DNA from: Bdellovibrionales bacterium
GTDB lineage: Bacteria; Bdellovibrionota; Bdellovibrionia; Bdellovibrionales; UBA1609
Direction: 5' to 3'
DNA: 64,000 nucleotides
NCBI GenBank assembly: GCA_965203095.1
Contig: OZ241877.1
Span: forward strand, 64,001 to 128,000
The notes below the pieces were generated by a model. The model was not told where the DNA came from, did not search any database, and worked only from the letters and a program-made list of their open reading frames with translations. The stretch's first letter is position 1. Every line of letters begins with the position of its first letter. Below are positions 29,033-63,925 of this stretch, piece after piece. Both the position numbers and the translations under genes were made by a program.

Positions 29033-29223
29033 TAGTCGCCTGTGAAAAACCTCTATAATTCACAGGGGATTCTTCAGTTTCTTTGCCCAAAAGCCACAGC
29101 ATTTCGGGACGGCAATACCTTGGACCCTCATGCCGTGGCCTTTGGGCAAAAGTCATTGAAAAGCCTGAGCCTGTAAAAGCAGGGGATGAGAGGGACTTAC
29201 TGAGGTTTTTTCACGGGGGACTA
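29033..29223. mobile_element. Hairpin-MITE family 1, complete copy (core on - strand, 29103-29129)
   Basis: TIRs TAGTCGCCTGTGAAAAACCTC / GAGGTTTTTTCACGGGGGACTA; internal hairpin 29082-29150. Confidence 0.8.
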
Positions 29224-30270
29224 ATTATCGAATTTATCGAATTTCGTTAATGTTCTTTGTTTCTTTCTCTTAAAAGTTCTATAACAAGTACTCACAGCAC
29301 CAACAACTAATGGAACTCCTAAGATTTGTCCAGTCCCTTCAATTCTACTGGGTAGCCTGGAGGGAGAATCAAGAGATGGAAAAAAGTTTCCCACAAGAGT
29401 AGTATCTATACCGGCATCCAAGGTGATTATTTTGGCTATAAAAAATAGCACAGCAGTAGGCACACCAAATATAGCCATATTAGAGACAAAGAAAAATAAG
29501 CTATCTGATTGTACTTTCAATTTTTTAAGGGCAAAGTAGGTAGGAAAGTTTTCTTCTTGTTTAGCCAACTTAGAGAGGCGAGAAAGTTTTAAACTATTCT
29601 GTAAGGCTTGACTTCTTCCCGATATCGATAGTCCTCTCTGGAGTTGAGGTGCCTTTGAGTAAAGTTGAGGCGTCTTTGAGGGAGACAAATAGTTTTTATC
29701 AATATGTTCCACCACAAAACTGGTGCTCATCTTTGTATTTGGCAAGCCGTAAAAATGGCCAATAAGATCACGAGCGGGGCCTTCTAACAGATTATTAAGA
29801 GCTGTTTTTAGTTTTTCCCTATCTTTTAACAAAATGGCCTGGCCAATGGCTGTTTCTTCCATCTTAGGAACTTTTATCCACTCACCTCCCAGTTCGATTG
29901 AAGGAGAGATTCTACTAGAAAAAGAGGTATAACCAGACATTAAAAGCAGTAAAGCCTCTAACTCTTCAGAAAACTCTTTTTGGTGTTTTTTAGCTTTAAT
30001 TATTTGATGAATAATGCTGTCGCCTTTTTTATCCACATAAGAGATGGCAGTTATAAAATCCTCCACAGGGCCATCTAATAGCCGGCTCATCTCTTCTGAA
30101 TATTGGCTATAATCTGAATTTTTGACAGCCTCATAAATAGGAGAGGGTTTTAAAGTTTCTTCATACTCAACTATAGATTGATCCCAGCGGGATCCATCAA
30201 ATGGAAAAAAATTCGCCCCCATGCTATGGGAAGAAAAAATCAAAGTTAAAAGTAAAGTTAAAAACTTCAT
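29221..30270 (-). CDS. Hypothetical exported protein with C-terminal hydrophobic segments
   Basis: Signal peptide MKFLTLLLTLIFSSHSMG; two C-terminal TM-like stretches. Confidence 0.7.
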   Translation of the reverse strand: MKFLTLLLTLIFSSHSMGANFFPFDGSRWDQSIVEYEETLKPSPIYEAVKNSDYSQYSEEMSRLLDGPVEDFITAISYVDKKGDSIIHQIIKAKKHQKEFSEELEALLLLMSGYTSFSSRISPSIELGGEWIKVPKMEETAIGQAILLKDREKLKTALNNLLEGPARDLIGHFYGLPNTKMSTSFVVEHIDKNYLSPSKTPQLYSKAPQLQRGLSISGRSQALQNSLKLSRLSKLAKQEENFPTYFALKKLKVQSDSLFFFVSNMAIFGVPTAVLFFIAKIITLDAGIDTTLVGNFFPSLDSPSRLPSRIEGTGQILGVPLVVGAVSTCYRTFKRKKQRTLTKFDKFDN

Positions 30271-30422
30271 ATTTTGAGCCTATATTAAAAATGATTTTTA
30301 ATTTGTCAAAATAAAAAAAGAGATTTTGTAAATTTTTCACAAAATTTTAAAAAGCTTGAGTGGCCTCTTAGATACAAGCAGACTTAAAAAAACTTACGCC
30401 AGTTGTTCCCGCCAAACTTTGC

Positions 30423-31520
30423 TCAAAAAGCACTAATAAAGGATAAGCTTTGCTTTAAAAGATCCAACTGCTCTTTTGTGTGCTGAAAGTGAAGGCTCAA
30501 CCTTAAACCAGACCGGCCCTTAGGCACTGTGGGTTCTCGAATAGCGGGGATAAAAAAACCCTTCTGCTTTAACTTTCGCGAAAACTCTAAGGCGACTTTA
30601 GAATTTTTTAAAACAATAAAAAGAATGGGGCTTTCCGATAGGCTTAAGCCTAAATCTTTTCTTAACTGAAGAGCTTTTTGCCTGAGATTGAGGGCACGGT
30701 GCCTTTCTTTTTTTAAAACCCGCAAAACCGCCAACCACTGGAGCATAAGAAGAGGAGAAACAGCTGTGCTGTAAATAAAAGAACGGCAGTTGTTGATAAG
30801 ATATTTTTTTATCAAAACAGATGAGCCAACAAAAGCCCCCGAACAAGCTAAAGCCTTCCCTCCGGTATGAACGGTGACAATATGCTCTTTTTGTTTTAAA
30901 TCACTCACAAAACCTCCGAGGTTTTTCCCAAAAAGCCCTGTGCTGTGGGCTTCATCCACAAGTAAAAGAGCCTGATAAGCCTGTGCAAGGCGGGAAAGCT
31001 CTTCTAAGGGAGAAAAATCCCCCTCCATACTGAAAAGGCTTTCTGTGACGATCAATTTCCCTCCTTTTTCTTTTTTCAGTAAATCCTCAAGATGATTCCA
31101 ATCATTATGCCGAAAAATATGATAGGGCCTCCGGCTCAAACGAATGCCATCAATAAGGCTGGCATGACTTAGCTGATCGGAGAAGATCACCCTTTCCTTA
31201 GATAAAGCGGGAATAAGACCCAAATTGGCCTGATAGCCGGAACAAAAACTCAAAACTGCGGGCCGGCGGATAAATTGTGCCATTTGTTTTTCCGCTTGAA
31301 TATGATAAGGGCTTGTCCCCCCAATCAAACGGGAGGCCTTAGAAGACAAAGCCAACCCTTCCTCCCTCAGGCTTTTGATAAGATCTTTTTTAATCTCTGA
31401 ATGTTGGCTAAGATCCAAATAGTCATTAGAGCTAAAATCTATATCTTCTAAAGACCTGCATTTCCGGTAGAGGAGGTTTTGTTTTTTTTGCTCTATATCC
31501 TTTTTAAAAAAATCAAACAT
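30423..31520 (-). CDS. bioF: 8-amino-7-oxononanoate synthase (class II aminotransferase)
   Basis: DFSSNDYL, SGYQAN.G, HASLIDG, ESLFSMEGD, VDEAHSTG, GKAL. Confidence 0.88.
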   Translation of the reverse strand: MFDFFKKDIEQKKQNLLYRKCRSLEDIDFSSNDYLDLSQHSEIKKDLIKSLREEGLALSSKASRLIGGTSPYHIQAEKQMAQFIRRPAVLSFCSGYQANLGLIPALSKERVIFSDQLSHASLIDGIRLSRRPYHIFRHNDWNHLEDLLKKEKGGKLIVTESLFSMEGDFSPLEELSRLAQAYQALLLVDEAHSTGLFGKNLGGFVSDLKQKEHIVTVHTGGKALACSGAFVGSSVLIKKYLINNCRSFIYSTAVSPLLMLQWLAVLRVLKKERHRALNLRQKALQLRKDLGLSLSESPILFIVLKNSKVALEFSRKLKQKGFFIPAIREPTVPKGRSGLRLSLHFQHTKEQLDLLKQSLSFISAF

Positions 31521-31571
31521 TCTTCCCCTTTTACCTCAACAGAGCTTTTAAATAATTTTTCCCCATCAAGA

Positions 31572-32246
31572 TTATAAAAATTTTTGTTCCTTTAAATGGG
31601 ATAAAATTTTTTCTAAAAGTTCTTCTGGTGGATGGAGGGCATTCAATATCAACCATTTTTCAGAATAAGCTTTGGCCATTTTAAGGTAATAATCCCTCAC
31701 TCTTTGGTAAAAGGCGGGCCTTTCCTTTTCCATCCGATCCCGCAGGCCCTTTTTTAAAGAATAATGGCTTAAAAGAGGCAGTTGATCTTCTCTTGTTTTG
31801 GTTTTTTTTGAAGGGAGTCGCTTAAAAGCCTCCGCCACAGGCAGATCTAAAAGAATCCAAAGGTCTGGCTCACAACTCCCACAAATTTTTTGTTTTAAAA
31901 GCTGGATAAAAGCAGGATCCATCCCCTTCCCCCCACACTGATATGCCGAAGTGCTGGCATAATAACGATCGGATAAAACCCATTGGCCTTTTTCAAGGGC
32001 TGGCCGAATGACCTCCTCAATGTTTTGCTTTCTGTCAGCGTAAAAGAGCAAGCTTTCCGATAAGGGATTGAGGGCAAAATTTTTTTTAGCCAATAAAAGC
32101 TCCCTGACTTTTTCGCCAGCAGGGGTCCCCCCCGGTTCCTTAGTCAGAATAAAATCCTGACCCCTTTTTTTGAGCTGAGCTTGCAAAAGTGAGATTAAAG
32201 AGCTTTTGCCTGAACCATCTATCCCCTCAAAAGCTAAAAAAGCCAT
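31572..32246 (-). CDS. tmk: Thymidylate kinase
   Basis: FEGIDGSGKS, EPGGT, SDRY..ST.AYQ. Confidence 0.95.
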   Translation of the reverse strand: MAFLAFEGIDGSGKSSLISLLQAQLKKRGQDFILTKEPGGTPAGEKVRELLLAKKNFALNPLSESLLFYADRKQNIEEVIRPALEKGQWVLSDRYYASTSAYQCGGKGMDPAFIQLLKQKICGSCEPDLWILLDLPVAEAFKRLPSKKTKTREDQLPLLSHYSLKKGLRDRMEKERPAFYQRVRDYYLKMAKAYSEKWLILNALHPPEELLEKILSHLKEQKFL

Positions 32247-32350
32247 AATCTCAGTTTATAAATGAAATTTAGGGCAGAGGCTATGTTAAAAAAGGATTTT
32301 TAAAGTTTTTTTTGAAAAAATAGTGATGGCAGAGATAAAAGCTTATCTCC

Positions 32351-32866
32351 TTATTGTTTGATTCTCTCATAAATTAAAAAGGAAAAAGGCTGAGGCTCCG
32401 CCTTATCTATCCGGCTGACTTCCTGAAACTGATTCTCTGGTATTTCAGGATAAGAGGCATCCCCCTCATATTCCTTATGGATCCGGGTGATATACAGACG
32501 ATCAGTCATACTGAGAGTCTGTTTGTAAATCTCCCCTCCACCGGTGATAAAAATCTCATTTCCATATTTTTTTTGAATTTCCGCCCTTTGGCAATACTTT
32601 AAGACCTGATCTATTGAGCTAAAAGAAACCGCCTCCTTATCTTTAAATTTTTTATTTTTTGTTAAAACCACATTCAACCTGTTAGGCAAGGCATGGCCGA
32701 TGGAATCAAAAGTTTTTCTGCCCATAATCAAGACCTTATTTTCTGTTGTCTTGTAAAAATATTTCAGATCTTCTGGTATATGCCAGGGGAGTTTGTTGTT
32801 TAAACCAATCATATTATTTTTTGAAACGGCCACGATATGGGAAAATGTGAGGCTTTGAGGATTCAT
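32351..32866 (-). CDS. folA: Dihydrofolate reductase
   Basis: IG..NKLPWHIPEDL, IMGRKTFDSIG..LPNR, GGGEIY. Confidence 0.96.
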   Translation of the reverse strand: MNPQSLTFSHIVAVSKNNMIGLNNKLPWHIPEDLKYFYKTTENKVLIMGRKTFDSIGHALPNRLNVVLTKNKKFKDKEAVSFSSIDQVLKYCQRAEIQKKYGNEIFITGGGEIYKQTLSMTDRLYITRIHKEYEGDASYPEIPENQFQEVSRIDKAEPQPFSFLIYERIKQ

Positions 32867-32883
32867 AAATTAACAGGGCAAAG

Positions 32884-33201
32884 CTAATGAATAGTTTTGT
32901 CTTTATTCAAAATGGTATTGTCCACAATATGAAAGTAAGTTCGAACCAAAATTTCAAAATTTTCTGAATCGAGCATACTCAAATAGTTTTGTTTGGCCTT
33001 TATGCTTTTTTTGGAGACCAGTTCGGTAAATACCTTTTGTATTTTTTGCATATTTTTGGAGTCAAAAAAACTTTTTTCCTGTGTGGGATGGCGGAGGATA
33101 TGGGCCAGCTTTTTGTTGTCTTCAAAAAGCCAGTGAATGCCCTTAGTGGATTGATGAAATAAAAATTCTATTTCCTTTAATTGTCGTTTTTCAATTTTCA
33201 T
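32884..33201 (-). CDS. Hypothetical protein
   Basis: ORF with SD (AGGAGG) upstream, co-oriented with folA-tmk-bioF. Confidence 0.7.
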   Translation of the reverse strand: MKIEKRQLKEIEFLFHQSTKGIHWLFEDNKKLAHILRHPTQEKSFFDSKNMQKIQKVFTELVSKKSIKAKQNYLSMLDSENFEILVRTYFHIVDNTILNKDKTIH

Positions 33202-33246
33202 TAGCCCCTCCTGTGAATATCCCTATTTAATTTTTATTCTTTTCTT

Positions 33247-33335
33247 AGATCAAGGAATAAAAAAGAAAGCGGTCTAAAGGCTGGTTTTTTTCTTGTGCGA
33301 TCTATTAAATTACAAAGGTTTTTCACGAGCGACTA
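33247..33335. mobile_element. Degenerate hairpin-MITE family 1 copy lacking the core
   Basis: ...CTTGTGCGATCTA...GGTTTTTCACGAGCGACTA. Confidence 0.55.
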
Positions 33336-33392
33336 AACAGTCCCCCAGAAAAAACTTGCCCTGAAAGCTCAAAATAGAGTATTGAATAGAGT

Positions 33393-34055
33393 ATGAAGAA
33401 ATTTATTTTAAGAGCTTTAACCGGGCCGGTAAAGGGCCAAAAATTCCCATTAAAAAATGGCCTGCAAATTGGTCGCTTTAAGGGGGATATCTTACTTCAG
33501 GATGAGTTGGTTTCGTCCCTTCATGCAGAAATTTCTGTCAGCTCCAAAGGCAAAATCCTCATCTTTGACAAAGATTCAAAAAATCAAATCATTATGGAAG
33601 ATCAAAGAGTTGTAAAATCTATTTTAAAGCCCGGATCAAAGTTTCAAATCGGACAAACAGAATTTCAGTTAGAGCTTATCCCCGACACTGAGGAGCTTTG
33701 GGCTTTGTTTATTAAAAAAGCTGGAGGGAAAATACAAGATCAGGCCATCCGCCTTCAAGCCTTTGCTCAGGCCATTGAGTTTGTTTTTTTGTCCGGCCCT
33801 CAAGAAGGCCAGACCGGCCAGCTGTTTTATGGGCCGAGGGTTTTTGGAAGTCGATCTTTAGATTTTCCCATTTTTGAAAAAAAAGCTCCAGCAAAAGCCT
33901 TTGCCCTGATCCCTGGGCCTAAAGGTTCTGCTTTTTTTGCCACAAAACATCCTGCCACAGTTCAACTGAATGGGAAAAAAGTAAAAAAAGCCAAAATAAA
34001 AGACGGAGATAAAATTTCAGTAAGAGGTTCCACCTTAAAAATCAATATCAAATAA
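33393..34055 (+). CDS. Tandem FHA-domain protein
   Basis: IGR...DI.L.D..VS..HA; second FHA-like domain ending ..NG.......+.DGD.I. Confidence 0.8.
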   Translation: MKKFILRALTGPVKGQKFPLKNGLQIGRFKGDILLQDELVSSLHAEISVSSKGKILIFDKDSKNQIIMEDQRVVKSILKPGSKFQIGQTEFQLELIPDTEELWALFIKKAGGKIQDQAIRLQAFAQAIEFVFLSGPQEGQTGQLFYGPRVFGSRSLDFPIFEKKAPAKAFALIPGPKGSAFFATKHPATVQLNGKKVKKAKIKDGDKISVRGSTLKINIK

Positions 34056-34162
34056 GGAGTAAGCATCTCCTTATAAAGGGAATACTCCTGTTTTTTTGTG
34101 AAAAGGGAACAGGGGCGACCAGCTTCTTTATCATGAGAGCATCCCGCCCTATACATGCTTTT

Positions 34163-35083
34163 TTAAATCTCAGTATAGGCCGGAATGCGGACATAAGATT
34201 CCTCCCCTTCTAAGGGGACTTTGTCTGTTTTGAATTTTGAGTTCAAATACTTTAAATCATCATAAGGAATACCTAATTCTTTAGATATATAAGATAAAGA
34301 GGAAGGACTCCTAAGAGAGATCAAGTCATACTCTAAAGGCTCTTTGTAATCCAAATTATAAAAACCATAGGCACGGGGTTTGAGGGCAATTTTTTTCATA
34401 GCCATAATTTTAGGAACATAGTTTCTGGTTTCTGGTGGGAGAGCTTTTCGCTGGACCAATCGCCAAAAATTTTTACTCTTGTGCTTTTTAATGGCCCGAA
34501 TCACTCTATTTTCCCCACAATTATACGCGGCCATGCTCAAACGCCAATCACCAAAAATAGCATACAGATCTTTAAGGTACCAAATGGCGGCCCTTGTGGA
34601 TAAATAAACATCCTGCCTCTCATCCACATAAGAATCCACCCGCAAACCATACTGCCTCCCTGTGGGCCGAATAAACTGCCAATAACCCACTGCATTGGCT
34701 GAACTTTTGGCATAAGGGTAAAAACCCGACTCCGCCATAACCATATAAACCAAGTCCTTAGGAAGTCCCTCTTCCTGTAAAATATCCCCCATAAAATAAA
34801 TATATCTGCGAGATCGCTCCAAATATCTCCTCATATCATCCTTTAAGGGCTTTTTTGATAAACGGCTAATCCAATGTTTGACATACGAGTTATTGTCTAT
34901 GGGAAAAGGCTTGTAATCTATTTCTGGCCTATCCTCTGTGTCTACATCAGAGTGAGAGGCTATAAACAAACCACTCAGGTCAGAATAAGGATCTAAAGGC
35001 TCTGCCACCTGCAAAGGGGCACAGGAGATCCCGCAACATAAAAAGAGCACAGTGAGCCACAGTGGGAGAAAAACTCTCATCAA
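34163..35083 (-). CDS. Lytic transglycosylase (SLT, MltD-like) lipoprotein
   Basis: MAESGF, AVGYWQFI..TG..YGL, AAYNCGE, ETRNYVPKI. Confidence 0.9.
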   Translation of the reverse strand: MMRVFLPLWLTVLFLCCGISCAPLQVAEPLDPYSDLSGLFIASHSDVDTEDRPEIDYKPFPIDNNSYVKHWISRLSKKPLKDDMRRYLERSRRYIYFMGDILQEEGLPKDLVYMVMAESGFYPYAKSSANAVGYWQFIRPTGRQYGLRVDSYVDERQDVYLSTRAAIWYLKDLYAIFGDWRLSMAAYNCGENRVIRAIKKHKSKNFWRLVQRKALPPETRNYVPKIMAMKKIALKPRAYGFYNLDYKEPLEYDLISLRSPSSLSYISKELGIPYDDLKYLNSKFKTDKVPLEGEESYVRIPAYTEI

Positions 35084-35113
35084 GACTGTAATCGGATTAT
35101 TTTGTAAGTTTTC

Positions 35114-35584
35114 TTAAGACTTTTGTCCGATAAAAGCCGGATTTGGGGCTGAAGACAGGGCAGAGAAGGCTCTCGCATACTGAAGAACCTGGTCTAAAAG
35201 AGAGCCTATGCCATTAGTCCGGCGAAGGCTCAAATACCGACTCAGCTGGAGTTGCTCAATAAATAAGGGGGGATCTTGCAAAATCTCTTGGGCTGTTCTC
35301 TTTGTATAAAATTTAATTATAATAGCTAAAATCCCCTTGGTTATCAGCCCTTCGCTATCCCCCATAAAAATAATCTGACCCGAATCGCCCATTTCCGGTT
35401 TCAGCCATAAAGGGGATTGGCAAGCTTTAATGAGCCACTTATCTTTTTTATCCTCTTCATTAAATTTTTCCAGCTTTTTTCCAAAATCAATAATGGCTCT
35501 ATAATTTTTCTCCCAAGTATTTTCTGGAGGGAAGATTTGCATTATCATTTTGTTTCTGTCTGTCATACTCTGCCACCTTAACAT
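35114..35584 (-). CDS. sufE: SufE family Fe-S protein
   Basis: IKACQS.LW, GDS..LITKG, LS..R.NG. Confidence 0.85.
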   Translation of the reverse strand: MLRWQSMTDRNKMIMQIFPPENTWEKNYRAIIDFGKKLEKFNEEDKKDKWLIKACQSPLWLKPEMGDSGQIIFMGDSEGLITKGILAIIIKFYTKRTAQEILQDPPLFIEQLQLSRYLSLRRTNGIGSLLDQVLQYARAFSALSSAPNPAFIGQKS

Positions 35585-35726
35585 GGGCGGGCCAAAAATT
35601 AAATAGTTAACAAGGTTTTTTACGGGGGATTAAATAAAAGCATGATTTTTTAAACAGATTAGGGTATAAAGGATTAAAGGCTTTGCAAGCCTCTTTTAAA
35701 AAAAGTCTGAAATAAGGGAGATCAAA

Positions 35727-40160: not shown

Positions 40161-40200
40161 AATAAAATGCCCTCATGAAAGCAGGTTCTTATAAAAACTC

Positions 40201-45194: not shown

Positions 45195-45767
45195 TTAATC
45201 CACCCAGTTAATCTTGTCTGTGTTCCATGCTCCTTTTAATTTACCGCGATATTTTGAGTCTACCATCGCTCCTTTCAAGTTTGCCCCTCTGAAGTTAACT
45301 CTGAAGTTAGCCCTCCACCATTTCACCCTTAACAAGTTCCCATTTAACAAGTTAGCCCTCCACCAATTTACATCCCCTGATCTATCCGTCATCCATACCA
45401 GCTTAGCCTCTATCAAGTATGCATGACTTAAGTTCGCTAAATCTAACTTTGCCCAATACAAGACCGCTTTTGTTAAGTTTGCTCCCGTCAAGTTAGCCCC
45501 TTGCAAGTTAGCCCCCGTCAAGTCGGCCAGGGCCAAGTCTGCCCTTGTTAAGTCTGCCCCTCTTAGGTCTGCATTCGTCAACAAAGCCCCTCTCAAGTCC
45601 GCCCCCTCCAATTCTGCCAACTTTAAGTTTGCATGACTTAAGTCCCTCCCCGCTAAGTCTAAGTCTTTTTTCCCTTGTTTTATTTGCTTAATAAGCTCTG
45701 TTTTGCTCAAGATTTTGGCTTGAGCGGGAATTGAGAAACATAAGAAGATAATAATCAGACCTTTCAT
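45195..45767 (-). CDS. Secreted pentapeptide-repeat protein
   Basis: Signal peptide MKGLIIIFLCFSIPAQA; A(D/N)L.G repeats; C-terminus NTDKINWVD. Confidence 0.9.
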   Translation of the reverse strand: MKGLIIIFLCFSIPAQAKILSKTELIKQIKQGKKDLDLAGRDLSHANLKLAELEGADLRGALLTNADLRGADLTRADLALADLTGANLQGANLTGANLTKAVLYWAKLDLANLSHAYLIEAKLVWMTDRSGDVNWWRANLLNGNLLRVKWWRANFRVNFRGANLKGAMVDSKYRGKLKGAWNTDKINWVD

Positions 45768-45861
45768 ACTTATCTTATCGGGTTATTGTCCGGGAAACTA
45801 AAGAAAAAAAGAGCCGTAAACTGTGGCCACCGGGAAAAGGCAAATAAAGGGAATAAAGAGA

Positions 45862-46188
45862 CTATTTGTTTTTGCGGGCTTGCTTTGACGGATTGTGAGA
45901 ATGGTTTTTAAAGTCATTTTTAAAGTCATATAACAGCTGTTTTATTTCAGCCTGCCCTGTCTCTAATTTATCCATTCTTATTTCAATCTTAGCTATGTTT
46001 TGTTTTAATGGGTCTATTTTTGCGTTTAAAAGAAAATTTACTCCTACAAGCAAAAAAGACAATGTCACCACAACACAAGATATAGTGATCATTAAAGGAA
46101 CAGAAGGTTTTAAATTCATACTTATTCCTTCAATCTTATTATCATCTGCTATTTGTCCAGTTGTGGCCGGGTTTAATGTTTCAGACAT
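45862..46188 (-). CDS. Small TM + coiled-coil protein (paralogue 3)
   Basis: TM segment then NFLLNAKIDPLK..GQAEIKQLLYDFKN..SH...KQARKNK, sharing its C-terminus with 44555..44803. Confidence 0.8.
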   Translation of the reverse strand: MSETLNPATTGQIADDNKIEGISMNLKPSVPLMITISCVVVTLSFLLVGVNFLLNAKIDPLKQNIAKIEIRMDKLETGQAEIKQLLYDFKNDFKNHSHNPSKQARKNK

Positions 46189-46221
46189 GTTAGCTCCTTA
46201 AGGTTATCAATTTATACATCC

Positions 46222-46250
46222 ATTATATGGACATTGGCCGGGAATGTCAA
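46222..46250 (-). promoter_or_regulatory. Consensus sigma70 promoter TTGACA-17-TATAAT
   Basis: - strand TTGACA ttcccggccaatgtcca TATAAT. Confidence 0.8.
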
Positions 46251-46344
46251 GTTTTTATTTCAAGTGCTCAAATATCAGCCAGAATAGGCTTTTTTTCCAG
46301 CTGAGGCTTTTGATATTTAAAGATTAGAGAGAAAAATAGAGGGT

Positions 46345-46986
46345 TTAGAGCGTATTCACCCATCTAACTAAGTGCAAGCCCTTAGCTCCCTTAAACAGTT
46401 CCCCCTTCCTGTCTTGATTTCTGTGCTTATATTTTATGCTAATAGTAGCCCCCGCCAAGTCCGCTCCAGTAAAGTCTGTCCGCCAAAAATCTGCAAATCT
46501 CAAGTCTGCCCATAACAATTTAGCTTCTGACAAGTTAGCTAATGTAAAATCCGCCCCTATCATTTTTGCCTCTGTCAAGTCAGCCCCTTCCAAGTCCGCT
46601 TTTCTTAAGAAAGCTCCCTGCTTTTGAGCCTTATGCAAGTTCGCTTCATGTAATCTTGCTCCATTCATTTTCGCACTCCTTAATTTTGCTTCCTCCATTT
46701 GTGCTCGATCAAGGCGTGCCCCTCTTAAGTCTGCCCCCGTAAAGTCTGCTCTCTGAAAATCGGCACCGGTCAAATTTAAATTCTGCATTTGGGCATTTTT
46801 AAAATCACCACCTGGGAAGGTTTTTTTCCCCCTTCTGATTTGTTCAATCAGTTCGCTCCCCCCTTGATAGATCAGTCTTGCTTTGGACTGAGGAGTCCTT
46901 TCCCCTTGAGTTTCTTTTTTGGCAAACTTAAGAGTCCCACAAGACAAAATAAAAGACGATAGAAAAATAAAAAATAGGATTTTCAT
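46345..46986 (-). CDS. Pentapeptide-repeat lipoprotein
   Basis: Lipobox ILSC; ELIEQIR.G leader as in 628..1110; ADL.GA repeats. Confidence 0.9.
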   Translation of the reverse strand: MKILFFIFLSSFILSCGTLKFAKKETQGERTPQSKARLIYQGGSELIEQIRRGKKTFPGGDFKNAQMQNLNLTGADFQRADFTGADLRGARLDRAQMEEAKLRSAKMNGARLHEANLHKAQKQGAFLRKADLEGADLTEAKMIGADFTLANLSEAKLLWADLRFADFWRTDFTGADLAGATISIKYKHRNQDRKGELFKGAKGLHLVRWVNTL

Positions 46987-49724: not shown

Positions 49725-49742
49725 GGGGGGGGGGGGGGGGGG
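49725..49742. repeat. G18 homopolymer (C18 on the coding strand of the fibre gene)
   Basis: Direct count of 18 G. Confidence 0.9.
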
Positions 49743-49750
49743 TAAATTTA

Positions 49751-49795
49751 CCGTCCCGAAATGAAATGGCCTTTGGGCAAAGAAACTAAAGAATA
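49751..49795. mobile_element. Half copy of hairpin-MITE family 1 (3' part of core + right arm)
   Basis: CCGTCCCGAAATGAAATGGCCTTTGGGCAAAG. Confidence 0.7.
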
Positions 49796-49805
49796 TTTGC
49801 CTTTT

Positions 49806-49879
49806 TATACTGATTTTGTTTGAAAATTCCTGCCTTTTCTACTCTGTTTTGACCGGAAATCTCAAATGTAATCAGTATA
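49806..49879. mobile_element. MITE-like repeat family 2, best-preserved copy
   Basis: Perfect 10-bp TIR TATACTGATT / AATCAGTATA. Confidence 0.8.
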
Positions 49880-50422: not shown

Positions 50423-50896
50423 TTGGAACGAACAGAAATTAAAAATCCAAAAGAGCTTAAACAAGTCTGTAAGAAACTAATAAAAAATATCAAAAGCCCT
50501 CATGTGGTTTTGTTGGAAGGTCCCTTAGCTGTGGGAAAAAGCCTTATGGTGAGTTATATGGCCAGTCAGATGGGCTTTCCGGAACAGGAAATTCACTCCC
50601 CCAGCTTTTCCCTAATTAATGTTTATAAAAAATCCCCACATGATATTTTATATCATGTGGATCTCTTCCGTTTGAAAACAATAGAGGAGGTAGAGAACAT
50701 TGCCTTTTGGGATATTTTTTGCGAGCCGGCCATAGTGTTTATTGAGTGGCCCCAACTTGTTCAAAAACATATCCCCCCTTTATGGAACCAACTCAAAATC
50801 CTGCTGAGCTTTGCCCCTCAAAAAGAATCTCGAATTTTAGAATGGACATTCATCCCTCCCATTCCTCTTAAATCAAAGGGCCGGAGGGCTAATTAG
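50423..50896 (+). CDS. tsaE: tRNA threonylcarbamoyladenosine biosynthesis ATPase
   Basis: LEGPLAVGKS, SPSFSLINVY, YHVDLFRL, FIEW. Confidence 0.93.
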   Translation: MERTEIKNPKELKQVCKKLIKNIKSPHVVLLEGPLAVGKSLMVSYMASQMGFPEQEIHSPSFSLINVYKKSPHDILYHVDLFRLKTIEEVENIAFWDIFCEPAIVFIEWPQLVQKHIPPLWNQLKILLSFAPQKESRILEWTFIPPIPLKSKGRRAN

Positions 50897-51157
50897 TCGC
50901 CCGTGAAAAAGTCTCAAAAGCTTTTTAGCTCCCGTGAAAACGGGAATCCAAGAATCTCAATTGTTTCCACAAAAATTTATTGAAAAACCTTATTCCTTAG
51001 CTTGTTGTCCAAAGGCCATTCCATGAGGGTCCAAGGTATTGCCGTCCCGAAATGGAATGGTCCTTTGGACAAAAAAAGTTGAAAAGGCTAAAAAATGATT
51101 CTGTCAGCGAAATAATGAACATTTACAGGAATGACAGAGGTTTTTCACGGACGACTA
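50894..51157. mobile_element. Hairpin-MITE family 1, complete copy (core on + strand, 51025-51051) containing a REP-like palindrome at ~50930-50949
   Basis: TIRs TAGTCGCCCGTGAAAAA / TTTTTCACGGACGACTA; hairpin 51005-51072. Confidence 0.8.
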
Positions 51158-51167
51158 AATAATCCAT

Positions 51168-53654: not shown

Positions 53655-53791
53655 TAGTCCCCCATGAACAAAGTATCCTCTTAACTTTTTTTGTCCAAAG
53701 GCCGTTCCATAAGGGTCCAAGGTATTGCCGTCCCGAAATGGGATGGCCTTTGGACAAAAGAGGCTAAAACCAAGTTTTTCACAGGCGACTA
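53655..53791. mobile_element. Hairpin-MITE family 1 copy (core on + strand, 53711-53737)
   Basis: TAGTCCCCCATGAA ... TTTTTCACAGGCGACTA with internal hairpin. Confidence 0.8.
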
Positions 53792-53806
53792 AACTATATC
53801 AAAAAA

Positions 53807-53893: not shown

Positions 53894-53922
53894 CATATCC
53901 CCTATTTCTAAAAAAACTATAA

Positions 53923-54011: not shown

Positions 54012-54208
54012 TAACCCTGAAAAACAAACCATGAACCTCAAGCATAAAAAATCCTGATTTAAAAATTTTGTTATTTTTTCTTTGTTTTAAACCCCTTTAT
54101 GTTTTATAGGTATTCATTGCACAGGAGGCAAAAAGCTTTTGCCCTCTGCCTGAATTAACCAGCTTAAAGTGCTATTTAAATATATAATGTTTAAAAAAGA
54201 GGCTCAAC

Positions 54209-56298: not shown

Positions 56299-56307
56299 GA
56301 GTAGAAA

Positions 56308-57240: not shown

Positions 57241-57241
57241 A

Positions 57242-57370
57242 TAATCGCCCGTGAAAAACTCTGCCCTTTATCGCATAAGCAAAAGCCAGCGGTGAGGGTC
57301 CAAGGTATTGCCGTCCCGAACAAGCTGGACTTTTGCTTATGCGATCTATCAAATGTAGGCTTTTTCACAA
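57242..57370. mobile_element. Hairpin-MITE family 1 copy, second stem type (core on + strand, 57294-57320)
   Basis: TAATCGCCCGTGAAAAA ... TTTTTCAC; hairpin 57270-57345. Confidence 0.8.
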
Positions 57371-57379
57371 AGAATGAAA

Positions 57380-57970
57380 TTATGTTTTTTTTAATTTTTC
57401 GGAAAGGATTTTCCGGAACTCTGCCCATGCTGAAGGAAAGGAGTCATTTATGATTTTATAATCATATTTCCGGCCCTGGGCCATCTCCAAAGCGGAGTTG
57501 GCCAACCGTTTTTTCATCTGCTCTTTAGTATTGGAACCTCTTTTTAAAATTCTTTTCTCCAATTCATTAAGAGAGGGAGGATAAATAAAAATACTCACAC
57601 TGTGAGGGAAAATTTTTTTAATAGCCAAGCCCCCCTGAACATCCACATCTTTAATAACAACCTGCCCTTTTTGCCACAATCTCTCCACCTCTTTTTTAGA
57701 AGTGGCGTAAAGCTCCCCATGCACTTCAGCCCACTCTAAAAACTCCCCTTGATCCCGCCGGCAATAAAAATCCTTTTTAGTAGTGAAGTGATAAAATTCT
57801 CCCTCCTTTTCCCCTTTGCGAGGGAGGCGTGTGGTCCAACTGACTGTGCTGGAAAGCCAAGAAAACTCCTTTAAGCTTTTTCTTAAGAATAAAGTTTTCC
57901 CCACACCGCTGGGGCCGGACAGTATCACAAAAAGACCTTGGGAACTTATAGTTTCACCCAATGTTTTCAA
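57380..57970 (-). CDS. gmk: Guanylate kinase
   Basis: SGPSGVGK, TTR.PR.GE, FLEWAEVHG.LY. Confidence 0.95.
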   Translation of the reverse strand: MKTLGETISSQGLFVILSGPSGVGKTLFLRKSLKEFSWLSSTVSWTTRLPRKGEKEGEFYHFTTKKDFYCRRDQGEFLEWAEVHGELYATSKKEVERLWQKGQVVIKDVDVQGGLAIKKIFPHSVSIFIYPPSLNELEKRILKRGSNTKEQMKKRLANSALEMAQGRKYDYKIINDSFPSAWAEFRKILSEKLKKT

Positions 57971-58011
57971 CCTTTTGACTTTTTAATTTAAGAAAAAAAT
58001 AACTCATGATT

Positions 58012-58863
58012 TTACTCAATGTTTTGAGCTTGCTCTTTAATTTTTTCCAAAACAAACTTCCCTTCAACCACTTTAAGGGTCAGATTAGATAATTGAGATT
58101 TAGAACCCATAGTGTTCATCTCCCTTAAAATTTCCTGAATATAAAAATCCATTTTCCGGCCTATAGGTAAAGGACTGCTCATTATTTTTTTAAAATGAGC
58201 CAAGTGCTCCTTTATACGAATCAACTCTTCGTGAATGTCAAACTTTTCCAACTCCAAAGCCAGATTTTTTGAGAGGGCCTCCTCAGTTTGCCGGCTTTTT
58301 TTTCGCATATACTTGGCTATTTGCTTTTTATTTAATTGCTGAATGCCCTCACAAAGAGATTTAAGCTCCTTTAAACGGGAAAATATGTCTTTTTTTAAAG
58401 CTGAGCCTTCCCTTTTCCTCTCCTGAAGACAGAGGCGAAAGGCTTTTTGAAAGCTCTCTTTAGCCTTTTTCTTCTCCCATTCAGTTAAGGTTTGAGCTTT
58501 TTCCACAAGTTGAATAACCCCCTCTTGAGGAATCAGATCCCTGAGGGTCAAATCATTTTTAAAATTCATCTCTTTAGACATTTGATTGTAAAGGCTCTTC
58601 CATTTTTTAGCCTGAATTTGACTATAACGAGGAGAAATATCTGGCAGAGGTTTTGGGGGGAAGCGATCCATTCGGACCACAAAATAACCCCGCTGGCATT
58701 GTTGGGAAATAATTTTCTTCAACTCCGGCTCTAAAGCCATATAATGCAAAGCTGTGTAAAACTTAACCTCTAAAAACCGGGAGTTGACGGATTTGACACT
58801 GACTTCTAATTCCCAGTCTTTATTGTTTGCTGTCACAGTTCCAAAACCTGTCATACTTTGCAT
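58012..58863 (-). CDS. yicC: YicC/YloC family endoribonuclease
   Basis: SMTGFG, KSVN.RFLE, DI.EE..R, GRKMDF..QE..RE.NT.GSK, EKIKEQ.QNIE. Confidence 0.9.
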   Translation of the reverse strand: MQSMTGFGTVTANNKDWELEVSVKSVNSRFLEVKFYTALHYMALEPELKKIISQQCQRGYFVVRMDRFPPKPLPDISPRYSQIQAKKWKSLYNQMSKEMNFKNDLTLRDLIPQEGVIQLVEKAQTLTEWEKKKAKESFQKAFRLCLQERKREGSALKKDIFSRLKELKSLCEGIQQLNKKQIAKYMRKKSRQTEEALSKNLALELEKFDIHEELIRIKEHLAHFKKIMSSPLPIGRKMDFYIQEILREMNTMGSKSQLSNLTLKVVEGKFVLEKIKEQAQNIE

Positions 58864-58876
58864 ATTTTACAATTTA

Positions 58877-59794
58877 TCATTTAAAAAATTTTTTGTAAAG
58901 CTCTAAAGCGGGCTGGTCCCCATCTAACCATAAAATGCTCTTATCCCTTTTAAACCAAGTTTCTTGTTTTTTAAATAAGGCCATAACACTAAATACGATC
59001 TCTTTTAAGAGATCTTCTTTTTTGATTTTCCCCTCTAAATAAAGTAGGCCCTCTTTATAACCCACACTGTGCAATGGGGGCCAGTTTTGAAAGCCTCGGT
59101 TTCTCAAAGACTCAATTTCCTCTATCAAGCCCCTTTTGAGCATGGTTTTTGCTCTTTTTTCTACCCTCTGGAGGACCTGCTCCTTCCTGCTCCGGAAAGC
59201 CACTTTAAAATAAGGCCAATCTAACTTCTGCCCTTGAAACTCCTTTTTGATTTGAGAAAGAGCCTTCCCCTCGCTTTCTATCAAGCTTAAAGCTCGAAAA
59301 ATTCTGTATTTGTCTTTAGGGCTTATTTTTTTAGCACTCTCTGGATCTTTTTTTATCAATTTTTTATAGAGATAGCCATAGCCTTTTTCACTTTGGATTT
59401 CTTTTAATTTTTGAGTCACGGTTTTTGGAACAGGGCGAAGGGGATACATACCCTTTTCTAAAGCCTGAATGTAAAAGCCACTCCCTCCAACAGCAAACAT
59501 TCTTTTAAAGGGTAATTCTTTTTTTAAAATTTTAAGAGCACGCCTTCTAAACTCTCCAGCAGTCCATATTTGAGGAGCTTTTATCTCATCAAAAAGATAA
59601 AAATTTATTGAAGGGTATTTTTTAAAATCCGGCTTGGCTGAGCCAATGTTTAAGTCCTCATAACCTTGAATGCTATCGCAATTTAAAATGCCAGCCGAAA
59701 CTTGGCCGGCCCACTGGATGGCCTTTTCGGTTTTTCCTGTGGCTGTGGGACCAACAACAAAAATGAGAGGGGCCGATTTAAGTGATTCGGCCAA
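58877..59794 (-). CDS. miaA: tRNA dimethylallyltransferase (probable TTG start at 59794)
   Basis: GPTATGKT, DS.Q.Y..LNIGSAKP, VGGSGFY, VGYKE, KKQ.TWF. Confidence 0.93.
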   Translation of the reverse strand: MAESLKSAPLIFVVGPTATGKTEKAIQWAGQVSAGILNCDSIQGYEDLNIGSAKPDFKKYPSINFYLFDEIKAPQIWTAGEFRRRALKILKKELPFKRMFAVGGSGFYIQALEKGMYPLRPVPKTVTQKLKEIQSEKGYGYLYKKLIKKDPESAKKISPKDKYRIFRALSLIESEGKALSQIKKEFQGQKLDWPYFKVAFRSRKEQVLQRVEKRAKTMLKRGLIEEIESLRNRGFQNWPPLHSVGYKEGLLYLEGKIKKEDLLKEIVFSVMALFKKQETWFKRDKSILWLDGDQPALELYKKFFK

Positions 59795-61550
59795 AATCCC
59801 TCTCCAAACGAGATAAAGAATACTGGACAAAAACAGGACGGCCATGCGGGCAAAAACTGGATAAGGGAAAATCATCCATTTGAGTTAAAAGCTCTTCCAT
59901 CTGATTCAGATTTAAAACCTGTCCGGCCCTTATGGCGGAATGGCAGGCCAAAGTGGCACAAAGATCAGAGACGGATTTCTCAAAAGCAAAGCAGTCCCCT
60001 GTTTGAATCCTCTCCTTAGCTAAAAACAACAGGCCCTCCTGCAAGGCCTTTTCCTTTAAAATGGCCGGAGAGGAACTGACAGATAAGGAGTTGGGGCCTA
60101 AAGACTCCAAATGAACACCTAACTTTTCCAATTCCTTGCTCAAATCCAAAAGAGCAGAGGCTTGCCCCTCTTCCAAATCTAAGGGGAAGGGGATCAGATG
60201 GCTTTGAACTTCCACCCCACCACTTTTCCAATGAGAAAAAAGCCTCTCGTAAAGCGACCTTTCGTGAGCGGCATGCTGATCAATAAAAATCAGAGCATTA
60301 TCCGACTGGCAAATAATATAAGTGAGATGAGCCTGAGATAGGATTTGAAGTGAGGCCCAAGAAGACTCCATTGCCCTGTTTTGGCTTTCTCCAATTCCTG
60401 TTTCAGCTGAAGAGGAGGAAAACTCATTTTTTGCTGAAAGAGGAGATAAAGTGGATAAAATCTCTTTAGAATATTCTCTCCGATTTAAGGGGAATTGAGT
60501 TTTTTCAAAATTAAAACCCTTTAATGGCAAGCTCTTGTCTTTAGAAGGGATAGGCTCTGTGATTTTTTTTACCCAAGGGGCTTGCTCTAACTTCTGCCTT
60601 ATAGACGATTCCACAAGTTTAAAAACAACAGAAGAATCTTTAAAACGGATTTCAGACTTAGCGGGGTGGACATTCACATCCACCTCATCCTTAGGACCTT
60701 GCAAACTGATAATGGCCATTGGGTATTCCCCATGCATTAAAAGCCCCCGGTAGGCCGACATTAAACCCGCTTGCAACACTCGCGACTCCACCCATCGGCC
60801 TTGAACAAAAAACCAAACAGCTCTTTTATTTTTGAGCGTGTTATTGGGAGCACCCACAACAGCTTTTAACTTGTAAGCCCCCCTTTGTCCTTCTATAAAA
60901 TACAGGTCTTTTAGGCTAAGAACCTGGCTCACCCTGTCTTTTAAGTTTTTTTGAGGAGGCCAATAAAAAACCAGCTGGCCTTTTTGCAAAATTCGAAAAC
61001 AAATTTCCGGTCGCGAAAGGGCCATAGCCTTTAACATGTTTTTAATTCTTGAGTGTTCCACTCCCTCACTTTTCAAAAACTTAAACCTGGCGGGCACATT
61101 TTCAAATAAGGAACGAACGATCACAGTAGTTCCATTAGCAGAGCCGGAAGATATATCTTCTGTCTCTTTTCCAAAAACTTGGCGAAGGCGAGAGGAAGGT
61201 TGGCCCGGAGCACCGGAGATTAAAGTCAAATCACTCACAGAGGCTATGCTGGCTAAGGCTTCACCCCGGAAACCGTAAGTCTTTAACCGAGACAGATCTC
61301 CTAAATGAGAAATTTTACTTGTTGTGTGGCGAGCTAAAGCCAAAGGCATATCTTCTTTTAAAATCCCAGAACCATTATCCCTCACTTTAACAAAACGTCC
61401 CCCTTGGCCAAAATCTATTTCAATTTCACTGGCTGAGGCATCTAAAGCATTTTCCACCAACTCTTTGATGAGATGGGCGGGCCTTTCCACCACCTCCCCA
61501 GCGGAGATTTGGTTAATGGTCTCTTCTGATAAAACTTTAATTTGTCCCAT
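59778..61550 (-). CDS. mutL: DNA mismatch repair protein MutL
   Basis: AGEVVERPA, GFRGEALASI, DVNVHPAK, DQHAAHER, ACH.AI, CPHGRP. Confidence 0.97.
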   Translation of the reverse strand: MGQIKVLSEETINQISAGEVVERPAHLIKELVENALDASASEIEIDFGQGGRFVKVRDNGSGILKEDMPLALARHTTSKISHLGDLSRLKTYGFRGEALASIASVSDLTLISGAPGQPSSRLRQVFGKETEDISSGSANGTTVIVRSLFENVPARFKFLKSEGVEHSRIKNMLKAMALSRPEICFRILQKGQLVFYWPPQKNLKDRVSQVLSLKDLYFIEGQRGAYKLKAVVGAPNNTLKNKRAVWFFVQGRWVESRVLQAGLMSAYRGLLMHGEYPMAIISLQGPKDEVDVNVHPAKSEIRFKDSSVVFKLVESSIRQKLEQAPWVKKITEPIPSKDKSLPLKGFNFEKTQFPLNRREYSKEILSTLSPLSAKNEFSSSSAETGIGESQNRAMESSWASLQILSQAHLTYIICQSDNALIFIDQHAAHERSLYERLFSHWKSGGVEVQSHLIPFPLDLEEGQASALLDLSKELEKLGVHLESLGPNSLSVSSSPAILKEKALQEGLLFLAKERIQTGDCFAFEKSVSDLCATLACHSAIRAGQVLNLNQMEELLTQMDDFPLSSFCPHGRPVFVQYSLSRLERDFGRIT

Positions 61551-61557
61551 AATTTTA

Positions 61558-62730
61558 TTAAAAACCCACCTGCAAAGCACAAAGAGGCCCATAAAGAAAA
61601 GATCCCTTCCTCAAGCCATATTGAGCCTTAAAACCCAGCCTAAACAAAAATTTATTATAAATGGGGATAACTAAAGAGAGGGCCATGGGGAAGCCATAGT
61701 CCACCTGATCATTTCCCCTTCCCATATTCAGATCTGTATAAACACCTCCCATTGCTAAAAAATGATAATATGAGGATCGAAGTAATGGATAGGCAAACAA
61801 AACATCAAAATAAAAATGCTGAAGGTTTATTGACCCCGATAAATTCAAATCCATATTTAAATAGGAGATCAATGTGTTATAGCCACTGAGTTTTAAACCC
61901 AAATGAATTTTTCTCTGATCCAAAAAATAAAAAGAAGGAGTAAAAAAACTCACAGAAGGGCCAATGTATCTTCTGGTATGGCTACTTTTCCCCTCTTTTA
62001 AGTCTTGAGGCTTTTTTTCTTTCTGCTGATGACGTTGAAGTTTATCCATTAGCTCTATATCTAAGCCACCTTGGGCCATCTGTTTTTTAGCCAGTTTGTA
62101 AGCTGAATGTGGCTTGTATCTTGGACCTTTTTTAATAAATTCAGGAATCACCTCAGCTGTAGAGATATAACCCACAATCTTTTTCTTACGAAAAATCAAA
62201 ATTTTATAAAAAGAACCAAAGTTATGATCTGGGCGAAAAACTTTTTTAGATATGAGAACATGCCGACCCACAAGTAAGGGAAACAGTTTTTTAGAGTCGA
62301 AATCCGGTGCTTCATAAACAAAACTGTTTAAGGCCGATACATAAGCTTTTTGCAGGTGCGGTTTGTATTTTTTAGGAACAAGATATTTTTTACCAGCAGA
62401 TTTTTTTTGAGAGGAAGGGATAGGGCTAACTTTGGCTTTTTGCACAGAAGCTGTTTTTTTACTGGCCAGCCTTCTATCAGAGATTCTTTTTTTAAGGGAT
62501 TTATGTTTTATTTTTTTTATTTGGGATACAAACACCCTTTTTTTCCTCTTAGGGGATCGAGTGTAGCTTATCAAAAAGCTCTCCTGGCCTCTTCTCAACT
62601 TTAAAGAAAATTTATTTTTTGTTTTAATAATAGAGGATATTTTTTGATAAAGCTTTTTGTGAGAGTGAACGGGCTGGCCATTAACTGACAAAACTGTATC
62701 CCCTTCTTTGAGCTTTATTTTCCCTAACAA
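61558..62730 (-). CDS. Hypothetical exported protein (N-terminal PDZ-like, central SH3-like, C-terminal beta-rich); true start probably further upstream
   Basis: L.EGD.VLSVNGQ PDZ-like motif; VYE.PDFDS; C-terminal aromatic residue. Confidence 0.65.
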   Translation of the reverse strand: MLGKIKLKEGDTVLSVNGQPVHSHKKLYQKISSIIKTKNKFSLKLRRGQESFLISYTRSPKRKKRVFVSQIKKIKHKSLKKRISDRRLASKKTASVQKAKVSPIPSSQKKSAGKKYLVPKKYKPHLQKAYVSALNSFVYEAPDFDSKKLFPLLVGRHVLISKKVFRPDHNFGSFYKILIFRKKKIVGYISTAEVIPEFIKKGPRYKPHSAYKLAKKQMAQGGLDIELMDKLQRHQQKEKKPQDLKEGKSSHTRRYIGPSVSFFTPSFYFLDQRKIHLGLKLSGYNTLISYLNMDLNLSGSINLQHFYFDVLFAYPLLRSSYYHFLAMGGVYTDLNMGRGNDQVDYGFPMALSLVIPIYNKFLFRLGFKAQYGLRKGSFLYGPLCALQVGF

Positions 62731-62870
62731 ACTGCCTGAAGGGATGCGGGAAATTTTTAAACCTCTTGAACTTTTTGAAAGGTTTTTTGAGACAGAAGAT
62801 CTTGTGCGGGGCTGGCTAAAGCTATAAAAACCCCCTACTGACCAGAGGATTAAAAAGAAAATAAAAAAAA

Positions 62871-63431
62871 TTAAAGCCCTGTGCTTCCGAATCCTCCACC
62901 TCCTCTCCCGCTATAGCTTAATTTTTGTCCCTCTATAAATTCTGCCTTAAAAACAGGGCAAAGTGCAAGTTGAGCCACCCGGTCCTGGTCCTTAATTGTA
63001 ATGTTTTTTTTACCTGCATTTAAAACTAAGGTTTTCACCTCCCCACGATAGTCAGAATCAATAGTTCCGGGGCTATTGAGCACAGTGAGACCCTGTTTTA
63101 AAGCCCAGCCACTGCGAGGGCGGGCTTGAAACTCAAATCCTGGAGGAATTTCAAACGACAATCCCGATGGGATTAAAGTTCTTTCCCCGGGCTGTAAAAT
63201 AATGTCCTCTTTCAAACAGGCTCTGAGATCAAAAGCACTGGCCCCTTCACTTTTATATTCGGGAAGTTCCCCTTTAAAATGTTTTAGTTTTTTAACCCTG
63301 ACCAGCAAGCGAGGGATTTTTGCCCTAAAATCTGCTGAAAAATCCTTTTTTTGCCCCTGTCCTCTTTTTTTGGAGAACTTAGGGCTTATCCCTTTTTTAT
63401 TATTGGACTTTTGTTTCCTTGGACGATCCAT
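62871..63431 (-). CDS. dut: dUTP diphosphatase with basic N-terminal extension (probable start 63431)
   Basis: ASAFDL, RPRSG, NSPGTIDSDYRGE, DRVAQL, RGGGGFGSTG; SD GGGAG before ATG 63431. Confidence 0.95.
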   Translation of the reverse strand: MDRPRKQKSNNKKGISPKFSKKRGQGQKKDFSADFRAKIPRLLVRVKKLKHFKGELPEYKSEGASAFDLRACLKEDIILQPGERTLIPSGLSFEIPPGFEFQARPRSGWALKQGLTVLNSPGTIDSDYRGEVKTLVLNAGKKNITIKDQDRVAQLALCPVFKAEFIEGQKLSYSGRGGGGFGSTGL

Positions 63432-63532
63432 AAGCTCCCTCTTTAGTTTATAAAGGAAACAGCAAAATCCGGCTTTTGACAAGTGTTTTTTAAATGCCTT
63501 AAGCTTTAGATATTCCTCCCTGAACCATCTTT

Positions 63533-63925
63533 GGACCTTCATACTGTAGTCTTTGGGCAAAACACAGTTGAAAAGGTTAAAAAATGATTCTGTCAGCGAA
63601 ATACTGAACATTTATAATTCCCGTGAAAACGGGAATCCATTTTGGACTTTAACCATGAAAAAATCCATATTTGATAGATCGCACAAGCAAAAAGTCCAGC
63701 TTGTTCGGGACGGAAATACCTTGGACCCTCACCGCTGGCTTTTGCTTGTGCGATAAAGAACAGATGTTTTTTTATGCAATTCTTTGATTTCTTTGCCTAA
63801 AGGCCGTCCCATTTCGGGATGGGAATACCTTGGCCCCTCATGGGACGGCCTTTAGGCAAAAGTGATTGAAAAACCTGATGTAAAAGCAGAGAATGAGAAG
63901 GTCTTACTGAGGCTTTTTCACGAGT
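63533..63925. mobile_element. Cluster of hairpin-MITE family 1 pieces: degenerate half copy, REP-like palindrome (~63617-63638) and two full hairpins (63678-63754, 63792-63860; cores on - strand)
   Basis: Cores at 63704-63730 and 63813-63839; the right end matches the 29033 copy. Confidence 0.8.

Follow-up and report, generated by a model that had tools for sequence, protein, structure and literature searches.

The window analysed here comprises 64 kb from the genome of a Bdellovibrionales bacterium (G000:C1:64001-128000; G000 denotes this source genome of 1.8 Mb, with 38% GC and a completeness of 90%), and it contains dispersed copies of a hairpin element which an earlier note had described as a 27-nt core closed by exchangeable, covarying stems. 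This observation was confirmed as real, yet it was incomplete, as inverted ends and target duplications had been overlooked: the copies are non-autonomous MITEs (miniature transposable elements with inverted repeats) of the type of the insertion sequence (IS) family IS5. The copies and their parts, with positions in the window, are:

29035..29221, minus strand: complete MITE of 187 bp, ends at 29035-29049 and 29207-29221, hairpin at about 29082-29150, core at 29103-29129
50896..51155, plus strand: composite MITE of 260 bp with both ends intact, hairpin at 51005-51071, core at 51025-51051
53657..53789, plus strand: MITE of 133 bp with a worn left end, core at 53711-53737 with one mismatch, flanks agreeing at 6 of 7 positions
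57244..57376 (end coordinate approximate), plus strand: element with the second stem type, left end at 57244-57258, hairpin at 57270-57345, core at 57294-57320, right end decayed
63660..63928 (start approximate), minus strand: tandem pair of hairpins, one per stem type, cores at 63704-63730 and 63813-63839, worn end at 63914-63928
1205..1255, minus strand: fragment with one arm and one inverted end (1241-1255), without core
6934..7005 (limits approximate), minus strand: fragment with a variant 3' half of the core, the right arm and a worn end
33247..33333, plus strand: fragment with an inverted end (33319-33333) and a worn right arm, without core
49748..49794, plus strand: fragment with the right arm and the 3' half of the core, preceded by a long G run
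63525..63575 (limits approximate), minus strand: fragment with the left arm and a worn 5' half of the core

IS5-type MITEs as carriers of the hairpin

All six cores lie where the earlier note had placed them, three of them without mismatch (29103 (-), 51025 (+), 57294 (+)), two with one mismatch (53711 (+), 63704 (-)) and one with three (63813 (-)), and the stems described for them, including their paired changes, were found in the window copies. The five partial copies are pieces of this element, with an arm and an end but no core left at 1205 and at 33247. Two generalizations apply less widely than had been thought. The core is near-invariant in the window copies, but its 3' half shows other variants genome-wide; and the copies at 29.1 and 53.7 kb indeed have two G.T pairs each and no A.C pair on the GAGGG strand, but A.C pairs do occur in the family. 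Folded as DNA, three of the window hairpins reach z values of -4 to -8 relative to shuffles. The MITE at 29035..29221 is bordered on each flank by an exact TAATTA duplication; the flanks of the composite MITE at 50896..51155, which has one dRS3/NTS-like repeat within it, agree at 5 of 6 positions. A run of about 19 G (49725-49743) just before the partial core at 49748 is possibly an assembly artefact.

Throughout G000, 81 copies of the core were detected at up to three mismatches, versus none for a reversed-pattern control, and a broader definition yielded 122 copies. Their conserved flanks extend to a 15-bp inverted end, GTCGYCCGTGAAAAA, with both ends present in 49 of the 122 copies, one in 29 and none in 44. 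An exact target duplication of 6-7 bp was found in 23 of the 49 two-ended copies, and all 20 cases of six bp fit TANNTA. The MITEs are 130-260 bp long, with clusters near 133, 153 and 188 bp. Similar, nearly identical ends bound a 1.56-kb element in another genome, G017, whose open reading frame (ORF) scores 469.6 bits against the IS5 model NF033578 (cut-off 275), and also an element in genome G209 whose assignment to IS5 rests on the 57-58% identity of its 445-aa ORF to the G017 ORF. The window copies are IS5-type MITEs because of these inverted ends, the TANNTA duplications and the ends held in common with IS5 elements, and every test of membership in the MITEs that gave an answer placed the family among them.

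The hairpin itself is part of the intact IS5 element of G209 (1580 bp), where it constitutes the right end and its left arm includes the stop codon of the 445-aa ORF. The core follows the ORF on the sense strand, and the inverted end is located about 60 nt beyond, a spacing also found in the G000 MITEs of 133 and 153 bp. In G209, 7 of 11 cores are found directly behind transposase matches on the same strand, and nine right ends have nearly identical flanks, the apex being the main difference. IS5 relatives at about 45-58% identity are devoid of the hairpin, and no tblastn match to the transposases of G017 or G209 was obtained in G000. A scan of GTDB for paired ends of this type returned 44 loci in several phyla with varied cargo, of which three loci (one genome) contain relatives of the core.

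IS1634, with four copies in G000 (near G000:C1 175258-177182, 971121-973051, 1227586-1229518 and 1350952-1352884), was discarded as a carrier as its ends differ; one of these copies adjoins a MITE, and one has a long identical repeat on its flanks. A Chlamydiae record (L068, L082, L092, L094, L101, L105) contains MITEs with the same type of ends, in which the long hairpin is another one and has a variable tip of its own.

When elements of G000 were chosen by their ends alone, so that the core itself did not select copies, the core word was present in 40 of 43, and conservation was 0.93 in the core columns versus 0.74 and 0.75 in the stems. Among 27 G000 copies of one stem type, a two-sided change was seen in 9 of 25 predicted pairs, all outside the core. 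Left/right chimeras and core-less deletion copies occur. In a scan against Rfam only tRNAs reached the gathering score, all other matches being sub-threshold miRNA-type hairpins, in line with the suspicion that this is not a known family. In two MITEs (G000:C1:247132-247259 and 1248228-1248394) the core is mostly lost, apparently through deletion between short direct repeats, and at G000:C1:226059-226254 a pair of inverted ends surrounds a tRNA-like gene in place of the hairpin.

Fold, covariation and shuffling of the tip

From the outside in, the hairpin is modelled as an outer stem and a variable internal loop, followed by the apical part formed by the core (hereafter the tip): a 3-bp helix, a T.T mismatch lying in a GTC/GTC step, a C-G pair, a bulge of three nt (CAA), a short stem and, at the apex, 3 to about 70 free nt. 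The GGG/CCC helix predicted in the earlier note covaries in related genomes, where GAG/CTC, GTG/CAC and AGG/CCT take its place. Among 76 copies read in genome G232, 69 have the standard loop, and these comprise 26 with GGG/CCC, 18 with GAG/CTC, 15 with GTG/CAC and 7 with AGG/CCT; the helix is fully paired in 66 of the 69, with copies chosen by the 3' side only, so that pairing was not imposed. In an alignment of 54 sequences, 94% of the cells are paired versus 77% in shuffles, 13 of 17 pairs show a two-sided change, and the covariation score is 0.48 compared with 0.17 in shuffles and at most 0.17 in slid controls. When 133 copies of eight genomes were combined (with G205 and G199 taken together and contributing 2 copies only), pair 3:24 is GC in 123 and AT in 9 copies, pair 4:23 is GC in 90, AT in 29 and TA in 10, and pair 12:18 is GC in 99 and CG in 30; position 6:21 is T.T in 131 of 133, an invariance that is partly built in, as the search was anchored on these words. 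Three pairs of the core thus covary across genomes, and this covariation in relatives supports the proposed selection on a strand-specific fold.

The tandem G.A pairs suggested for the core are kept in six genomes but are not universal, since G240 and most G026 copies have other loops or Watson-Crick pairs instead. Long-apex forms in G209 and G232 are without the 3' GT, and a loop variant of G232 (about 20 copies) fits the short stem poorly.

In G232, the only genome in which this pattern was seen, the modules of the hairpin show nested linkage. Mutual information, as a fraction of its maximum, is 0.94 between the two helix sides and 0.83 between the two outer arms, whereas modules that are neighbours in the DNA are unlinked (outer left arm and helix 0.20, p 0.21; helix and loop 0.08, p 0.21; helix and outer right arm 0.14, p 0.11), and the loop is weakly linked to the outer arms (0.20-0.31). 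Under plain descent or single crossovers, the strongest links would be those between neighbours. The pattern seen requires that inner segments were exchanged, through either conversion combined with selection or a crossover of folded strands.

Distribution and relation to known systems

The tip was found in seven genomes of a different genus of the same family, with 179 (G232), 43 (G247), 18 (G205), 11 (G209) and 10 (G199) matches to a 13-nt word and 24 (G240) and 13 (G026) matches to a short-apex pattern. A covariance model detected it in 7 of 109 genomes of the family, namely in G000 and in 6 of 15 genomes of this sister genus (G240 was missed), and in none of nine congeners of G000. Many copies in these genomes lack IS ends: 13/13 in G026, 21/23 in G240, 10/12 in G205, 4/5 in G199 and 16/24 in G247, while 37 of 47 copies in G232 have both; the counts for G232, G247, G205 and G199 come from fetched subsets of copies. 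Three loci, L334 and L292 (G205 and G199) and L266 (G026), have copies inside what are probably, judging by the resemblance of the genes, ribosomal-protein and ATP synthase operons. G205 and G199 have one insertion site in common.

Two of three window elements compared are 78-82% identical to sister-genus copies over 120-130 nt, and the third aligns over 66-70 nt. Because the window elements resemble copies of the sister genus while congeners lack the element, transfer between the genera is likely, as judged from sequence resemblance. The tip probably is a separate module, similar to REPs (repetitive extragenic palindromes), which was captured by one IS5 lineage, because it is an IS end in G209 yet mostly occurs without ends in four other genomes. 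The simplest history would be that of a free repeat which was captured by one IS5 lineage and from which MITEs were then spawned.

Outside these genomes the searches were negative. The exact core had no match in GTDB, and at up to three mismatches none was found in 60 relatives, a sample that held one genome of the carrier genus, whose apex differs. Scans of metagenome and viral sequences yielded matches without the hairpin (6 and 3 loci) or none, and a plasmid search gave one chance match. Phylum-wide patterns were singletons in 19 of 400 genomes, which is the level of the controls. From another set of singleton matches, 34 loci outside G240 were folded, and the long hairpin was seen in none.

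Among known systems, the hairpin MITEs of bacteria (Correia/NEMIS, ERIC, QMITE2, Nezha), as presented in excerpts from PMC10969869 and PMC3184786, are similar in being short, non-coding and intergenic with a long stem-loop, in having target duplications, and in inverted ends in common with autonomous IS elements. The family described here has IS5-family ends with a 6-7-bp TANNTA duplication and, compared with what these excerpts relate, differs in a tip that covaries, moves between unrelated stems and occurs without ends. According to the excerpt of PMC3184786, bcr1 of the Bacillus cereus group, about 155 bp long, is likewise a mobile repeat that has direct repeats and whose fold is preserved by compensatory changes; it differs in forming a cruciform and in being interpreted as RNA, and that excerpt describes no link to IS ends. 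REPs and bacterial interspersed mosaic elements (BIMEs), the substrates of TnpA-REP (RAYT), also have, in the excerpt of PMC8266576, a folded single strand, a conserved mismatch or bulge and mosaic arrays, but the stems are much longer here, the tip is enclosed in a hairpin and no Y1_Tnp gene was found in G000; in addition, the GTAG tag of REP/RAYT systems was not found at the stem foot in the aligned copies. Like CGTC REPs (PMC3733652) and NTS-SRM (PMC11893778), as far as they are described in the excerpts, the tip has CGTC and TCCA words flanking a stem junction of a single-stranded DNA (ssDNA) hairpin, but here both words are enclosed in the hairpin, their order is swapped and the register is different. 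The layout of CGTC before an 8-9-bp stem with a CCA tail is absent from the tips; in G026 alone, the stem foot has a similar second word pair, which lies about 43 nt outward on either side. With the IS5 insertion sequences (NF033578) the family has in common the ends, the target duplication and the full element of G209, but among the lineages examined the structured right end is confined to one.

The literature searched contained no account of the family or of such an IS5 end, and the figures and supplements of PMC3733652 and PMC11893778 (consensus tables, degenerate SRM) could hold a closer match. By analogy, the element would work like a REP or NTS site, yet it is a member of neither group. 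What this analysis adds is the source in IS5, the occurrence of a free form in relatives, the covariation within the core, the nested shuffling and the mini-hairpin apex.

Of the partner genes which the earlier note had envisaged, neither a RAYT nor a reverse transcriptase gene was found in G000, where PF00078 had no match (this search was limited to G000). A Y2 transposase (IS91/Y2 HUH) was detected in none of five genomes, and the control genomes likewise gave no match. GIY-YIG genes of 230-270 aa were rejected as partners, as they are not flanked by the tip and are present in non-carriers too. Ssn-like GIY-YIG genes of 87-98 aa exist at L421:1516-1779 (G227, a non-carrier) and L422:1483-1779 (G199, a carrier), and no such short frame was found in G000. 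NTS-like repeats are located near 15 of 44 end-less G000 copies versus 5 of 49 (p 0.006). The G000 genome has 245 dRS3/NTS-like repeats (27 strict), for example at window position 50927-50950.

Single-stranded DNA, RNA or neutral cargo

With somewhat more confidence than doubt, we propose that IS5 MITEs carry an older tip which folds as ssDNA on one strand and is read by a candidate structure- and sequence-specific protein. The structure of this cargo is a matter of observation; its function is suggested by analogy. A DDE transposase, no longer seen in G000, would move the mini-transposons in trans into TANNTA sites. The tip would be older than this carrier and may have spread first as a REP-like repeat in the sister genus, may then, through capture, have become part of the right end in one IS5 lineage, and would have reached G000 with that lineage or its MITEs. 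The folded single strand might be recognized by a putative protein in the way in which TnpA-REP recognizes bulged REPs on one strand only (excerpt of PMC8266576) and SsnA reads NTS as ssDNA, not RNA (excerpt of PMC11893778). Exchange at or near the tip would swap inner against outer modules with the partners still matched, a pattern that is evident in G232 and for which the mechanism is conjectural. Much more tentatively, and with considerable doubt, the tip could serve an ssDNA enzyme not yet described, distinct from both RAYT and Ssn, as its site of recognition and strand exchange. This enzyme would recombine two folded hairpins across the GTC/GTC step so that both partners are swapped together; the site may correspond to a circularly permuted CGTC-REP/NTS junction, captured by an IS5 lineage as a diversifiable right end.

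The main rival to the ssDNA reading is that the fold acts as RNA, either as a 3' structure of the transposase mRNA or as a small RNA, setting transcript stability, processing or protein binding and inherited by the MITEs from the IS end. We consider this possible, if rather unlikely. In its favour, the G209 hairpin begins, on the sense strand, at the stop codon of the transposase ORF, and in 101 of 122 copies the GAGGG strand gives the better RNA fold, with a mean advantage of 3.3 kcal/mol; when folded as DNA, this strand is preferred in 97 of 122 copies. There are precedents, in that RNase III cuts transcribed MITE hairpins (excerpt of PMC10969869) and the RNA fold of bcr1 is kept by compensatory change (excerpt of PMC3184786). 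On the other hand, the tip is kept without IS ends in four genomes, and other IS5 relatives dispense with the hairpin. Among G000 copies between co-directional genes, the GAGGG strand is sense in 22 and antisense in 18, which argues against a role in host mRNAs, and in five other genomes there is an antisense lean of 21 versus 7 (small samples, crude ORF calls and copies that are not independent). The apex, too, points to DNA: it is GCGNAGC in 35 of 37 copies of G240 and G026 (N being A in 21, G in 8, T in 5 and C in 1; counted with a pattern that left the loop free), and one IS apex of G209 is the GCGNNAGC form of this mini-hairpin. GNA is reported to be the only triloop that gives this highly stable mini-hairpin of DNA, and a related tetraloop sequence to be far less stable in its RNA form (excerpt of PMC13037366); together with this, the GCGNAGC apexes favour ssDNA.

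Less probable still is that the hairpin represents neutral cargo of an ordinary foldback MITE, its arms matched by template switching and its core homogenised by gene conversion, with no selected function. In favour of this are the chimeras and core-less copies; most G000 stem types track subfamilies, and a near-identical stretch of 35 nt around the core could co-convert both helix sides. Copying from arm to arm would, however, remove the T.T mismatch as well as the bulge and internal loops, all of which are kept; the four matched helix types and the GC/CG swap in the apical stem each require compensated change, and the tip persists in eight genomes under unrelated stems and carriers. The two-sided changes within the core have already weakened this explanation. 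A small self-cleaving ribozyme or an intergenic host regulatory RNA seems very improbable indeed. The conserved core with tandem G.A over a short helix is reminiscent of hammerhead domain 2 or twister P4, which we count in favour of a ribozyme. The Rfam result, the loss of the tandem G.A pairs in two genomes, the random orientation among host genes and the occurrence of copies at unrelated loci speak against it, and nothing else points to the ribozyme or stand-alone non-coding RNA that the earlier note had mentioned. IHF-site, hammerhead, twister, hairpin-ribozyme, K-turn and attC readings were dismissed as other required parts are absent.

Several observations weigh against the ssDNA reading. 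No partner enzyme accompanies the tip: a Y1_Tnp gene was not found in G000, and matches to it are present in 3 of 15 sister-genus genomes without lying beside a core at the three loci read; the Ssn-like genes of G227 and G199 are flanked by NTS-like repeats and not by the hairpin element. In the full IS the folded strand is also the strand of the transposase mRNA, and the G.T wobbles and tandem G.A pairs fit RNA equally well. The apex of G000, G232 and short G247 copies is not a mini-hairpin, and the GNA apexes elsewhere descend from few ancestors and reflect few independent changes. Within G000 itself the core pairs hardly vary and nested shuffling was not seen, the modules tracking subfamilies. 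Relatedness of the copies inflates the covariation counts, so that cell counts overstate the number of independent events. Finally, a clean empty target allele was not found among the contigs of four runs.

On the GAGGG strand, distinct G.T events outnumber A.C events by 19 to 9 in G000 (p 0.087, a count that includes some chimeras and alignment edge cases) and by 7 to 1 in G232; pooled, the numbers are 26 and 10 (p 0.011). With respect to replication, the strand count in G000 is 51 of 122 (p 0.085), and the skew of this genome is weak. In G240, copies on like strands tend to share a genome half (21 of 25; p 0.013 with the scan over split points taken into account), and replichores were not delimited by the GC skew of 20 sampled windows of 10 kb each.

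The manner in which hairpins of the REP-like and MITE kinds spread and become diverse is an open question, for which this family provides a natural experiment, as one small motif is found free, within MITEs, and within an intact IS5 element, the copies of which vary chiefly at their apex. It offers a defined substrate of 26 nt, whose natural compensatory variants can serve in probing, pull-down and recombination assays, and the transposase, being intact, makes it possible to test whether the tip matters in transposition. If exchange between folded strands is confirmed, it would be a new route to mosaic repeats; if not, the family would still clearly exemplify the capture of a structured repeat by an IS.

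The window contains further repeats and gene clusters. A second short repeat family with TATA ends, probably another MITE, is present at 9022-9097, 18083-18135, 26137-26212 and 49804-49879, and one of its copies adjoins the partial hairpin at 49748. A defence cluster at 9213-19841 includes restriction-modification genes, an AAA protein, a DarT-plus-macro-domain ORF, a methylase and an ICEA-like nuclease. Pentapeptide-repeat genes and fragments are located at 685-997 and 45195-46986, with 37 related ORFs genome-wide.

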